Shown here piece by piece: positions 9,946-14,297 of a stretch of 64,000 bases of DNA. Source of the stretch: an uncultured Nitrososphaerales archaeon (GTDB lineage: Archaea; Thermoproteota; Nitrososphaeria; Nitrososphaerales; Nitrososphaeraceae); assembly GCA_963695855.1 (NCBI GenBank), contig CAVOHZ010000003.1, forward strand, positions 288,001 through 352,000, written 5' to 3'. Each line of letters begins with the position of its first letter. Position 1 is the stretch's first letter. The notes under the pieces are model-generated. The model did no database searches. It saw only the letters and a program-made list of their open reading frames with translations, and was not told where the DNA came from. A program made the position numbers and the translations under genes.

Positions 9946-11145
9946 ATATTTTAAAAAAAATTTTTTATCGATATTATATAACTAAAAGGATTAATAATAT
10001 TTCGAAACATCAATACGTACTTAAAATCTGAAAAATTTAACGGATTTTCTTTCTGAATTAAAAACAGAAAATAATTTTGTATAAGTCAGTTCTAATGTAA
10101 AATTTGAAGATATGTACTAATATGTAGTAAGTAATTGGACAACCACATTTTTAAATATTAGTATAAATTTTCAAAACCATTTCCGACTTAATAGACAGGA
10201 ATTCCGAATATAAAATCTAGAAAAGAGACCGAAAAGATTTCCAATTTAATTAATGTATGACTAAAATTTTCATTGTCAAAATATCCCCTCATTCAATTTA
10301 TACTTTTATACATATTATAACCGCCAAATTCGGCAAGTTATATGAGATGATCAAAAATCATTCCGATAAATAAGTAAAGAGCAAATCCTAACGAGATCAA
10401 GGAAAAACCAAAAGGAATTATCTTATTTTTAAATAAAGAATAGTTAAATCTTTTTAATTTATCTGTAGTCTTTGTCTGCACATAAAAATATAGCTCTTTA
10501 AACTCTTTTTCTTTTCGAATATATTTTTAAGAACACTCTTAGAATAAAATTTTAGATTAAAATCTAGCAAGTGATAGCAGTTGTTTTTACACACCTAGAA
10601 TAAAATATATTTTTCCTTAGAAATGAAATGTTATTGGGTTTAGGATGGAATTTGAATATAATATGTTAATTTAACATATGATGAAAAAATCCTGACTAAC
10701 AAAAATTCATTTACATATTCTTTTCAAAAAAAATGTTTATTAGAATTGAAAATGATATTTTCGATATTTATAGAATATAAGAAATTTAGCCGGTGCTGTT
10801 AAGTTAACAAAAGAACTAACTATATGTTAACAAGTCCAGTAAATCCAAATCAGACAGTAAGTTATGCTCTAACAGTAGTATGATGTATGTGGGAATGGAT
10901 CTACATAAGAACTACTTACAGATTGCAGTAATGGATGAGAAAAAAAAAGTAATCAGCAATAGCAAAATAGATAATGATATACAAAAGATACGGAGATTTT
11001 TTGACCAGATCAAGAATAAAAAGAAAGATGATGATGATAGGAACTACTACAATCATCATCAAAAGGTAGTAATGGAATCATCATGTGTATGGTATAACAT
11101 ATACGAATACTTGTCTGAAGAAAGAAATCTTGATGTAATACTACC

Positions 11146-12198
11146 TGTTGTACTTACTAACATAGGTTACAATTTCATTTACTGACATGGGTAACACTTT
11201 CTAGTTCTGCTAGGAAGTGTATAAAAAATAGAAATACAAACAAGATATAATTTAATTCATGAAAAAGAATGGACTGGAGATACGGTAACTGATATTTGTA
11301 CTAGATATCAAATATCCAGAAAGATATACTACAAGTGGAGGAACAGGTACCTAAAGTATGGAATAAATGGTCTACATGATAGAAGTAGAAAACCACACAA
11401 TATACAACCTGCAAAAATAACAAAAGAGATAGAAGAAGAAATATTGGATTTACGTATAACAAAAAGATTTGGATGTAACCGGATCAGATTCAGGTTAAAA
11501 AGACTAGAGGAGATGTCACTAAGTACAAGAATCATATACAAGATATTGAAAAGACATGGTCTGAATATCCTGGAATGCAAGATAAGGAATAAAAGAAAAT
11601 GGAATAGGTTTGCAATGAAAAAACCCAATCAAATGGTACAGATGGATATTTTAGGTCCTTTTTATCTAGAAAATTGTGCTCAAAAGAACTATTTTATCAG
11701 TTGTGAAGATGATTGTTCAAGAAAGGTATCAAGTGACTGGTCTGAAAGAAAAAGAAGCATAGATGTATTGCATGTACTAGAAGACTATATTGTAGAGAAT
11801 GGGAAACCAGAAAAGGTAATGCATGATAATGGTAAACAGTTTACATCCAGAATATTTAGACGTTTTCTACAACGTAATAACATTAAAGATAAATCCATAC
11901 CTGCCAGATATCCGCAACTACAGGGAAAGATAGAAGCATATAACAAGATAGTAAAAAACGAATTTTTAGCAGTAGAAAATATTCCTAATGTAGAAGATGG
12001 AAAGAGAATGTATTCCATGTTTGTAAAAGCATACAATGAAGAAAGAGAACATGGTGGCATCAATGGTCACACACCATCTGAAATGTTTCTTAGGAAAGGA
12101 AGATTAAATAATCATAATGGTAACAAGAAAATCAAGCAGCTAAAAAGTGTTACCCATGTTGGTAAGTGAATCTGTTACCGATCTATGTAAGTACAACA
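11146..12198 (+). mobile_element. IS481-family insertion sequence nested in IS110
   Basis: TGT...ACA ends; 12-bp perfect terminal IR tgttgtacttac plus a subterminal IR (catgggtaacacttt); 6-bp target duplication actacc/actatc with one mismatch. Confidence 0.92.
11217..12169 (+). pseudogene. IS481 DDE transposase (HTH plus integrase core), frameshifted at the 5' end
   Basis: ISRKIYYKWRNRY..G..GLHDRSRKPH; PNQMVQMD; DDCSR; HDNGKQF; PQLQGKIE. The GTG at 11217 is out of frame by 1 nt at an A6 tract. Confidence 0.85.
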
Positions 12199-13075
12199 AC
12201 TATCAAATCCAATTAAAACAAGAGCAATTGCATCAGCAAAAATAAAGACAGACAAAATAGATGCAGTAAAACTGGCAGGTTTACTGAGAGGAGGATTCAT
12301 ATCAGAATGTTATGTATCTAAAAAAACTATGGAAGTACGTGAGATGATAAGACATAGGATTGCATTAGTAAGAATGAGAACCAGATTGAAGAACAAGATC
12401 CATGGGATAATGCTTATGAAAGGAATGTGAATTAATAGTAACAATAATAGTACTGCTCGCTTCATAATAGAGTATATCAATAAACTACAAGCATTGAACG
12501 ATTATAGAATTGATGCTTACATTCATCTGATAGACTCATTTGATTATGAGATTAAACATGTATCCAAGCAGATTGCTGTATATGCAAAAGAAAAGAAGAT
12601 ATTGCAAGATTATTGTTGGTGACAGTACCTGGTATCGGATACTATTCTGCTCTTCTTCTTCTAATAAGTGAAATTGGCGATATTAACAGATTTACAGATT
12701 CAAACCATCTTTGTTCTTATGCGGGATTGATACCATCAACTCATAGTTCTGGTGGAATAACATATCATGGTAAAATAAATAAAACAGGCAGTAAATATTT
12801 GAGATGGATAATGGTTGAATGTGTAGGTTCTCATATCAGAACTCAACCTGACAGTAACATAACAAAATTCTATTATAGACTGGCAAAAAAGAAGGGAAGT
12901 GCTAAAGCAACAGTTGCAGCATCATCCAAAATGTTAAAGATAGTTTACTGGATAATGAAAGAGAAGAGAGAATATACATATACAAATAACAACAACAATA
13001 ACAATAACAATGATAAAATTGAAAAAAAGAATTAAAATTATTATTTTAGTTAAGGTGATAACAAATTATTATTAC

Positions 13076-13193
13076 AGCCACAAGACAGCTATTGAGGGAA
13101 AGCCTCGTCGATCTAACTGTGCTAACTCCTTAACAAATGGATAAAGAAGGTAATAATGAGGGAGAGCCTCGGATGGATAAGAAGTATCCGTTT
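13076..13193 (+). ncRNA. Candidate IS110 bridge/seek RNA (two stem-internal loop-hairpin modules)
   Basis: Twin hairpins tgagg-gaaag-cctcg and tgagg-gagag-cctcg, each closed across an internal loop by an outer stem (agccacaag/ctgtgct; aaatggata/tatccgttt), in the non-coding end downstream of the transposase. Confidence 0.65.
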
Positions 13194-13496
13194 CTACAAA
13201 TAAACAGATAATGTGGAGATGAATGAATAAAAAAAATAACAATTATGAATTAAGATAAATATTTAATAATACTTCACATGGACATGGATATCGTATGTGT
13301 ACGATTGGATCAAATTATTCATATATCTATATAACACCAAAATCAGGAATACAATAATATTCAGTATATGAGGTGAACTAGTCTTAACTTAACAGACCAT
13401 TTAATTAGTTACTATATATGCATTCAATATATTCTTAAATTTCAACGCCTAACTTGTTATAAGTATTTATTTCCACCCTGATTTAATTTTATTAGA

Positions 13497-14297
13497 TTGA
13501 AATTTCTGCTTACAGAAACGCAATTAAATATCCTAATTATTAAAATCAATCGACCTGAGGTTTTAAATGCCTTGAATTTTGAGGTAGTTTCTGAAATATC
13601 TGAAACTCTAGATTCTATTCCAGCAGATGAAGAAATAAAAGCAATTATTATCACTGGCGAAGGAGATAAATCATTTTGTGTAGGGGGAGATCTGAAATAT
13701 GTATCTAATTTAACCCCTAATGAAGCCGAATTATATGCAATTCATGTACATAAACTATTGAACAAAATTGAAAATTTTGATACCCCAGTGATAGCAGCGA
13801 TAAATGGGTATGCTCTAGGAGGTGGATGTCAATTAGCCTTAGCGTGTGATCTAAGATTTGCTTCAAATAACGCCAGAATTGGACAAACAGAGGTAACAAT
13901 TGGCATTCCTCCGGGCTGGGGTGGAACTCAGAGATTGGCTAGAATTGTTGGAGTCTCAAAAGCTAAAGAATTAATTTATACTGGCAGAATAATCTCAGCA
14001 CATGAAGCAAAAGATATCGGATTAGTAAATGAAATAATTAAATTCGAAATGAATCAATCAAATAATAATAAAATTAATCATAAAAAAAAATTAAAACAAG
14101 AATCATTTATCTCTAGATGCATTTCTTTATGTGAATTAATAACCAGGAACAATTCTTTTGCACTTAAGATAAGTAAAACCTTGATCAATAAAGCAAGAGA
14201 TGTAAATATAGAAGGTGGTCTTTTGATGGAGAGATATGGTTGTAGTCTTTGCTTTACAAATCTGAATACGGAGAAGATTAAAGATTTATTATCTTAA
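13497..14297 (+). CDS. Enoyl-CoA hydratase/isomerase (crotonase) family protein
   Basis: NRPEVLNAL, FCVGGDL, AAINGYALGGGCQLA, GIPPGWGGTQRL. Confidence 0.92.
   Translation: MKFLLTETQLNILIIKINRPEVLNALNFEVVSEISETLDSIPADEEIKAIIITGEGDKSFCVGGDLKYVSNLTPNEAELYAIHVHKLLNKIENFDTPVIAAINGYALGGGCQLALACDLRFASNNARIGQTEVTIGIPPGWGGTQRLARIVGVSKAKELIYTGRIISAHEAKDIGLVNEIIKFEMNQSNNNKINHKKKLKQESFISRCISLCELITRNNSFALKISKTLINKARDVNIEGGLLMERYGCSLCFTNLNTEKIKDLLS

Follow-up and report, generated by a model that had tools for sequence, protein, structure and literature searches.

A decayed archaeal IS1111-type element with a predicted two-module guide RNA of the bridge RNA/seekRNA kind in its 3′ non-coding end

Introduction

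The genome of an uncultured Nitrososphaeraceae archaeon, a soil ammonia oxidiser, contains a decayed insertion sequence (IS) of the IS110 family. It lies in a stretch of 64,000 nucleotides (assembly GCA_963695855.1, contig CAVOHZ010000003.1, positions 288,001 to 352,000), which is called the window here. At this locus the remains of a transposase gene are followed by a non-coding end with two near-identical hairpins, and the whole is enclosed by the two ends of an IS6-like element. A first-pass annotation of the window had proposed that the non-coding end encodes a two-module RNA comparable to the bridge RNAs and seekRNAs that guide IS110 recombinases. We conclude, with a probability of about 0.87, that positions 10819-13288 are a dead IS1111-type copy of an IS110 element, and that its 3′ non-coding end encodes a bridge/seekRNA of ~140 nt (13049-13189) on the + strand. 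This reading is based on a conserved RNA structure, on loop strands that covary with the flanking DNA, on defined element ends and a defined target, and on the protein family of the transposase. To our knowledge, experimental characterisation of bridge RNAs and seekRNAs has been confined to elements of bacteria.

In the seekRNAs described for IS1111 elements, the match to the top strand lies 5′ of the match to the bottom strand, whereas the order is reversed in IS110-type elements; the IS1111 transposases carry the motif GL-P----S(t)G (PMC11187229). According to the predictions of Durrant et al., 93% of the IS1111 elements of ISfinder have a bridge RNA, and in many IS1111 RNAs the donor-binding bases lie in a multi-loop (PMC11208160). 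In Archaea, 662 IS110 recombinases were catalogued by Vaysset et al. 2024 (bioRxiv 10.1101/2024.06.21.599552), where a link between IS110 and Nop5 of the box C/D system is also proposed. A 2026 preprint (10.64898/2026.10.21.760802) reports large-scale mining of IS110-adjacent intergenic regions in bacteria and archaea, and the family described here may be in its database. A full-text literature search found no description of IS110 RNAs in ammonia-oxidising archaea.

Results

A dead IS1111-type element bounded by two TA dinucleotides

The element and its parts are listed in Table 1. Its right boundary, which the first-pass annotation had placed at the TA at 13289-90, is real: homology with a second, sister copy in the same genome (G000:C10:1354843-1356281, likewise broken, 88-90% identical) ends there, and the RNA region therefore lies inside the element. 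The left boundary had been placed at the TA at 10787-88, which is 30 bp too far left. That TA was rejected because it lies in a separate ~100-bp repeat, outside even the IS6-like end starting at 10792; the core TA is at 10817-18 and the element starts at 10819. Three further left-end fragments are present in the genome (3.55 Mb, 11 contigs), and the same element ends recur in relatives.

The transposase pieces match the Pfam domains PF01548 (DEDD_Tnp_IS110) and PF02371 (Transposase_20). Because the gene is split by an IS481-like insertion and has in addition a stop codon, in frame within the piece 12197-12589, and a frameshift, the piece 12613-13035 lying in a shifted frame, the window copy is dead. 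It is the fossil of a working system and can no longer move. The open reading frame (ORF) of the IS481-like insertion scores under the curated cut-off of NF033577. An intact transposase of the window type is absent from the genome, in which the next best protein is at most 47% identical over the C-terminal 140 amino acids (aa). In intact relatives the DEDD N-terminal domain (PF01548) and the Transposase_20 C-terminal domain (PF02371) are both present; one of them, of 346 aa, exceeds the cut-off of 140 of NF033542, 'IS110 family RNA-guided transposase', with a score of 242 bits, and matches the IS621 and ISCro4 transposases in the Protein Data Bank.

Within the 140-aa ORF at 12613-13035, GLIPSTHSSG fits the IS1111 pattern GL-P----S(t)G. 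The non-coding sequence measures 61 nt upstream and 254 nt downstream of the transposase gene. The subterminal inverted repeat of the relatives is 8 bp long (ATGTGAAC/GTTCACAT), with 5 and 3 bp, respectively, between it and the TA cores; its left copy in the window has a G-to-T change. Judged by sequence, the element carries every IS1111-group feature that we tested: both domains, the subterminal repeats, which in this group measure 7-17 bp and have short terminal extensions, more non-coding sequence downstream of the gene than upstream, the GL-P----S(t)G motif and sequence-specific targeting.

A two-module RNA conserved among Nitrososphaerales

The two near-identical hairpins of the first-pass annotation, at 13093-13107 and 13157-13171, are borne out by the sequence and are identical at 14 of 15 bases. 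Below each lies a large symmetric internal loop, with strands of 11-12 nt in module 1 and of 13 nt in module 2. TA is present in all four loop strands, as had been claimed. Both of the outer stems that had been described exist, but the stem of module 1 is reduced here to 3 pairs and a C.C mismatch, and a basal stem had been overlooked. For 13047-13192 the minimum free energy (MFE) fold reproduces the two-module structure exactly, and separate MFE folds of two relatives, L018 and L060, give this structure as well.

We searched 101 related genomes with the C-terminal 140 aa of the transposase and found matches at E <= 1e-20 in 15 of them, the window's own included; eight other genomes hold close relatives (66-77% identity). 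Downstream of nearly all relatives stand two GAGG-N-CCTC hairpins ~61 nt apart, among the same conserved stems. A covariance model, R1, was built from 9 relatives in other genomes, leaving out the window and its sister copy. In the window it scores 74.1 bits (E 4.7e-14) at 13064-13192, while the reverse strand gives 13.2 bits (E 0.73). Matches to R1 were found in 9 of 151 genomes sampled from the order Nitrososphaerales, the own genome and more distant families among them.

When 19 distinct sequences from Nitrososphaerales genomes were aligned to the model, 93.6% of the stem cells were paired and 11 of 26 pairs had changes on both sides, as many as in none of 500 shuffles. Controls in which the partner was slid by 1-3 columns gave 30-45% pairing and 1-7 pairs changed on both sides. 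On the 9 close relatives covariation was not informative; it turned so once the model had brought in more distant members. The stems are thus kept in homologues, as the first-pass annotation expected, with compensatory changes in the basal stem, in stem 2 (CCAC/GTGG to CCGC/GCGG) and in stem 4 (GGATA/TATCC to TACCA/TGGTA). The capping hairpins are nearly invariant across the set. A U.G pair closes hairpin 1 in 17/19 and hairpin 2 in 18/19 sequences, and stem 4 has G.U variants; such pairs fit the + strand only, since the opposite strand would have A.C mismatches at these places. In one element (L061, genome G096) both capping hairpins are altered alike, from GAGG...CCUC to GAGU...GCUC, and this parallel change suggests that one protein surface reads both hairpins.

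An IS6-like left end is the target

The IS6-like element is ~720 bp long and is present in dozens of copies in the genome. Its ORF (219-222 aa) matches DDE_Tnp_IS240 and scores 95.6 bits on NF033587 (IS6 family), under the cut-off of 125. Uninterrupted left ends read ...GA(G/T)C-TA-TAGCTGTGAAC, the occupied left junction reads ...GA(A/T/G)C-TA-ACTATATGTGAAC, and in the sister copy the sequence at the right junction is ...CACATGGA-TA-TAGCTGTGAATG. Comparison of the empty and occupied IS6-like sites therefore indicates that the element is flanked by a common TA only, with no long target duplication. An empty-site allele, from which the first-pass annotation had suggested that the ends be defined, is present in the same genome, with the exact sequence GATC-TA-TAGCTGT at G000:C10:1244645. 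This sequence, 25 bp inside the IS6-like left end, is the specified target of the window lineage. Targeting is sequence-specific: several copies in genome G010 have one target in common.

Approximately 590 bp of IS6-like sequence have been lost at the window locus, because the right end of the IS6-like element, and not the continuation of its left end, stands after the right TA. The right flank of the window copy was considered as a target and rejected, being the far end of the IS6-like element. IS6-like copies carry GATC-TA, the same left half-site as in the guide, at the deletion point near their right end, and a recombinase-mediated deletion of the ~590 bp at this half-site is conceivable. 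A second lineage (L024, L048) is also inserted in the IS6-like left end (GGCTCTGTTAAGTTAAC...), 6 bp further in than the window lineage, and its guides match. The ~100-bp repeat that abuts the IS6-like end (10686-10789) belongs to a family with about a dozen genomic copies and ends near ...TTAGCCAGTAT; a miniature inverted-repeat transposable element (MITE) and a promoter-bearing repeat are candidates for its nature.

Loop 1 changes with the target flanks

Loop strands were taken from the model alignment and junctions from the loci, and each element was compared with every junction. The reverse complement of the loop-1 5′ strand matches the element's own right junction with a mean longest run of 6.33 (n = 18, maximum 10), versus 3.44 for the junctions of other targets (n = 296, of which 9 reach 6 and 4 reach 7). 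The longest run at the own right junction is 10 in L057, 9 in L018, L021 and L038, 8 in L019 and L061, and 7 in L024, L068 and L020; L031 and L063 follow with 6, L032 and L017 with 5.

With few exceptions, the sequence of the loop-1 3′ strand is N5-CTAAC, in which N5 repeats the left flank, TA corresponds to the core and AC to the two bases that begin the element. Counted as consecutive identities beside the core, agreement with the own left flank averages 3.77 (n = 13; possible ~5) versus 0.66 for other flanks (n = 128). The comparison covers 13 elements because no left ends were found for L032, L038, L057, L061, L063 and L068 (truncated or decayed); the own left flank of the window has 1 consecutive identity (GAAC vs GATC) and was entered as 0 in the left-flank table. 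L021 and L038 differ by one base in the loop, and the corresponding base differs in the flank.

The matches between loop and DNA had been described as only partial in the first-pass annotation. With the true IS6-like target they are good: loop 1 of the window matches the empty site at 8/8 and 6/6 bases and the left junction of the sister copy at 9/9, and its 5′ strand gives a run of 8 with the sister copy junction that corresponds to the IS6-like target. In comparison with G000:C10:1244645, the window has a run of 8 with the right target, attained by 28 of 2000 dinucleotide shuffles, one of 9 with the left junction (39 of 2000) and one of 7 with the right-end tip (248 of 2000); all three are attained jointly by 0/2000. 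The top-strand match lies 5′ of the bottom-strand match. The predicted guide strands of loop 1 change with the flanks, and this is the layout of an IS1111-type seekRNA or bridge RNA.

Two variant arrangements of the RNA region were also seen. L066 (G037:C1:41667-44808; RNA at 1501-1642, - strand) is a MITE-like copy without a transposase that has kept the RNA and a normal right end. Just 106 nt separate its left end (TA-ACGGTATGTGAAC) from the two-module RNA downstream, and its left guide fits its own left flank while its right guide misfits its own right flank. In L037 and L045 (G010), a partial tandem duplication downstream of the transposase gene has produced three hairpins; in the extra unit, a loop-2 5′ strand is combined with a 3′ strand of loop-1 type that has another guide (GATAGAGCTGAAC).

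Loop 2 follows the right end on one strand only

The loop-2 3′ strand tracks the right-end tip with its TA in four variants, ATGGATA, ATGGGTA, ATAGATTA and ATGGATTA for tips ATGGA-TA, ATGGG-TA, ATAGAT-TA and ATGGAT-TA, and so behaves as a left-donor guide should. Covariation of the loops with target or donor DNA, on which the proposal of the first-pass annotation depended, thus holds for three of the four strands, with the target flanks or the donor end. By analogy with IS621, the module 2 5′ strand would be expected to complement the left end (ACTATATG...), but in 13 relatives it gave reverse-complement runs of only 3-5. A full four-guide bridge is not demonstrated, because this strand lacks complementarity to the left end. 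Of those bridge/seekRNA features that sequence can reveal, the right-donor guide is the only one lacking.

The loop-2 5′ strand is a same-sense copy of CAGAC(A/G)GTA(A/G), a conserved motif that occupies nt 33-42 of the left end and shortly precedes the start codon of the transposase gene. Runs of 7-9 between strand and motif were found in 7 of 13 elements. The A/G variant is mostly concordant between the two, and the deep-branching L060 has ...TAC in both. It is possible, although we think it rather unlikely, that the donor is read in this archaeal clade in another way than in IS621, with the loop-2 5′ strand not pairing with the left-end tip. Two readings of the copied motif can be considered. 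The RNA may recognise a subterminal site in the left end by pairing with its bottom strand, and such a synapsis geometry would be new; alternatively, the messenger RNA leader may mimic half of the donor loop, in which case the recombinase would regulate its own translation.

A TTTAA(G/T/A)A box starts ~22-23 nt before the element end in 15 of 18 relatives. This distance would suit an archaeal TATA box from which transcription starts at the junction of a circular form.

A second, unrelated IS110 element in the same genome

The same genome holds a second, unrelated IS110 element with a 342-aa ORF, in three identical copies (L005:784-2068 = G000:C10:140666-141950; L006; L007). Its insertion point, with an AG core, follows GGCTCTGT-AG within the left end of an IS5-like element, and three empty sites for it are found on contigs C2, C10 and C3. 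In its 3′ non-coding end, CCATCATA (reverse complement) matches the right target, TCTGTAGGT the left junction and ATGGGAGAA the right-end tip and core. The runs are 8, 9 and 9, reached by 34, 9 and 1 of 1000 shuffles, respectively. The architecture of its RNA differs from that of the window family. A shuffle-controlled run search found no right-donor guide matching the left end of this element. Both elements are thus inserted at a fixed position within the terminal region of another mobile element, IS6-like for the window family and IS5-like for the second IS110.

Table 1. Positions and description of the features of the element, of the predicted RNA and of the surrounding IS6-like sequence (window coordinates).
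Feature	Position	Strand	Description
IS1111-type (IS110 family) element, decayed	10819..13288	+	bounded by two TA cores; 5 left-end and 2 right-end genomic copies share sequence
Left non-coding end, 61 nt	10819..10879	+	subterminal inverted repeat ATGTTAA 10824-30 (relatives: ATGTGAA); internal motif AGACAGTAAG 10852-61
Transposase pseudogene, three pieces	10880..13035	+	10880-11143, 12197-12589, 12613-13035; tblastn with intact 346-aa relative, ORF list, Pfam
IS481-like insertion, 1055 bp, splitting the transposase gene	11144..12198	+	rve-domain ORF 11444-12169; 4-bp duplication ACTA at both sides
Predicted bridge/seekRNA gene	13049..13189	+	basal stem, target-binding module and donor-binding module; from covariance model, fold and covariation
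Basal stem	GTTAAGG 13049-55 with CCTTAAC 13128-34	+	from sequence
Module 1 outer stem	CCAC 13078-81 with GTGC 13119-22	+	3 pairs and C.C mismatch; relatives CCAC/GTGG
Putative target-binding loop, 5′ strand	13082..13092	+	ACAGCTAT 13085-92, reverse complement of ATAGCTGT, right half of the IS6-like target
Hairpin 1, T-GAGG-GAAAG-CCTC-G	13093..13107	+	U.G, GAGG/CCUC, loop GAAAG
Putative target-binding loop, 3′ strand	13108..13118	+	GATC-TA-AC 13110-17: left target, core, element's first two bases
Module 2 outer stem	(AAAU)GGAUA 13139-43 with UAUCC(GUU) 13185-89	+	from sequence
Second loop, 5′ strand AAGAAGGTAATAA	13144..13156	+	non-complementary to left end; in relatives a same-sense copy of the internal left-end motif
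Hairpin 2, T-GAGG-GAGAG-CCTC-G	13157..13171	+	loop GAGAG
Second loop, 3′ strand	13172..13184	+	ATGGATA 13173-79: right-end tip and core TA
TTTAATA box	13262..13268	+	possible archaeal TATA box pointing outward; position in the window shifted by a 6-bp duplication
Right end	13273..13290	+	subterminal inverted repeat TTCACAT 13273-79; tip CATGGA, doubled here, 13277-88; core TA 13289-90
IS6-like element, first 27 bp (left inverted repeat GGTGCTGTTAAGTTAAC...)	10792..10818	+	left target half, ends in core TA 10817-18; aligned to intact ~720-bp genomic copies
IS6-like right end, last ~108 bp	13291..13398	+	aligned to IS6-like consensus; directly right of the window right TA

Discussion

At the level of the family, our analysis supports the proposal of a two-module guide of the bridge/seekRNA type, with a TA core, in the 3′ end of an archaeal IS110 element. 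Several observations weigh against this interpretation. In the nine close relatives the stems are 95.7% paired with a single compensatory pair, a result matched by 334/500 shuffles and not significant, and the shuffle counts for the 19 sequences overstate the case because that alignment was fitted to the model structure and the sequences are kin. The fit to the right junction is poor in L022, L004 and L060 (runs of 4) and in L066 (3), and the present flanks of the window copy fit poorly as well (right run 3; left GAAC-TA vs guide GATC-TA). The window copy shows defects: stem 2 has the C.C mismatch, each strand of loop 2 has an insertion of 3 nt and the right-end tip is doubled; an insertion of 15 nt that separates stem 2 from the basal stem is also found in the sister copy. 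The folding energy of 13036-13300 is no better than that of shuffled sequences (z = -0.53, 62/200 as good), and that of 13047-13192 is unremarkable (z = -1.30, 22/200 as good). Rfam has no match in 10000-14000 at E <= 10 apart from an unrelated weak one outside the region. In the search for a right-donor guide in the window, the reverse complement of the non-coding end reached a run of 6 with the core and left end, equalled in 1318/2000 shuffles. As to transcription, the public sequencing runs sharing words with the region are 5 soil metagenome runs with at most 0.11 of the words, mostly 'probably DNA'. Four of the five were aligned and yielded contigs of relatives only (88-99% alike), leaving 13159-13293 uncovered, which says nothing on expression or its absence.

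For a guide RNA with two modules, the steps from transcription through RNA-protein binding and strand pairing to catalysis can be proposed by analogy with IS621 and ISEc11. The DEDD recombinase would bind the RNA. In module 1, the target-binding loop, the 5′ strand would pair with the target top strand right of the TA core and the 3′ strand with the bottom strand left of the core, its extra AC agreeing, like a handshake guide, with the bases at which the element begins. Module 2 would hold the donor, its 3′ strand pairing with the bottom strand of the right-end tip and TA, and the circular element would be inserted by recombination at the TA core.

The alternative that survives best, although we regard it as improbable, is that only module 1 guides, as a narrow seekRNA. 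Module 2 would then be a duplicated protein-binding scaffold that has kept its likeness to the right-end tip for some other reason, and the protein, instead of RNA pairing, would read the donor ends through the subterminal repeats. Such a system would agree with the failure to find a right-donor guide in either the window or the unrelated IS110 relative of the same genome, and with a module 2 5′ strand that copies an internal left-end motif instead of complementing the left end; it is less easily reconciled with a module 2 3′ strand that covaries with the right-end tip across four variants, or with the loop geometry and the hairpin that module 2 shares with module 1. The published systems point both ways, as the seekRNA account of Siddiquee et al. 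gives only target matches in IS1111 seekRNAs and allows that end recognition may differ (PMC11187229), whereas, according to Durrant et al., the bridge RNAs of IS1111 elements contain nucleotides that bind the donor (PMC11208160).

It is far less probable that the inverted repeats act as DNA, either as transposase sites or as cruciforms, that there is no RNA, and that the matches between loops and flanks are pieces of target carried along. IS ends do have protein-binding repeats, and no transcript was seen in the public runs (metagenome contigs). The U.G pairs at both hairpin bases in 17-18 of 19 sequences and the G.U pairs in stem 4, which would be A.C on the other strand, nevertheless argue for RNA, as do the model scores of 74.1 bits on the + strand versus 13.2 on the - strand; moreover, the sequences that match the flanks are found 170-200 bp within the element, and one is reverse-complemented, unlike carried-along flank. 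That the hairpins are chance structures or generic terminators after the transposase gene, for which weak folding z-scores in an A+T-rich region might speak, is almost certainly wrong, given a two-module unit kept across several families of the order, the model match, the compensatory changes, the flank covariation and hairpins with no T-run after them.

Among known systems, the two-module RNA proposed here can first be compared with the seekRNAs of ISEc11, ISPa11 and ISKpn4 as presented by Siddiquee et al. 2024 (PMC11187229). These elements likewise have a DEDD transposase of 330-350 aa with GL-P----SG, subterminal repeats and a long downstream non-coding region, and in their seekRNAs, too, the top-strand segment lies 5′ of the bottom-strand segment, with an overlap at the insertion point. 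Unlike them, the window family is archaeal (Nitrososphaerales), has an IS6-like end as target and TA as core, is known from sequence alone, and has a second module, a near-copy of the first, that would read the right-end tip.

The bridge RNA of IS621, as described in PMC11208160 and PMC13626964, similarly has two internal loops, each capped by a stem-loop, whose two strands read opposite DNA strands around a 2-nt core, with handshake dinucleotides beyond the core; its recombinase is related to that of the window family (E 7.5e-10 to 8wt6). In the same descriptions, IS621 differs by an RNA in the 5′ left end, a reversed order of top and bottom guides and a CT core, and by a right-donor guide, none having been found in the window family. 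The putative donor module of the window family is a simple internal loop as in IS621, unlike the multi-loops reported for many IS1111 RNAs (PMC11208160).

A more distant parallel is offered by the box C/D small RNAs (sRNAs) with Nop5: a two-fold RNA with two large guide-bearing internal loops and a protein of the Nop/IS110 fold, both in archaea. The guides of the window RNA would read DNA flanks and not ribosomal RNA, and no membership is claimed. A reading of the hairpins as kink-turns or C/D boxes was rejected by eye, the motifs not being seen.

The family described here is a compact natural system, with a recombinase of 337-346 aa and a predicted RNA of ~125-140 nt. Its regular twin-loop design, its TA core and about a dozen natural pairs of guide and target form a specificity table for tests of programmability. 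If the donor were read differently from IS621, this and the outward TATA-like box together would amount to the junction-promoter life cycle in an archaeal form. The family also provides a concrete archaeal candidate bridge RNA for comparison with box C/D sRNAs, which bears on the proposal that Nop5 derives from an IS110-like ancestor. Finally, the nested IS structures of Nitrososphaeraceae genomes find an explanation in IS110 elements that home to IS6-like and IS5-like ends.

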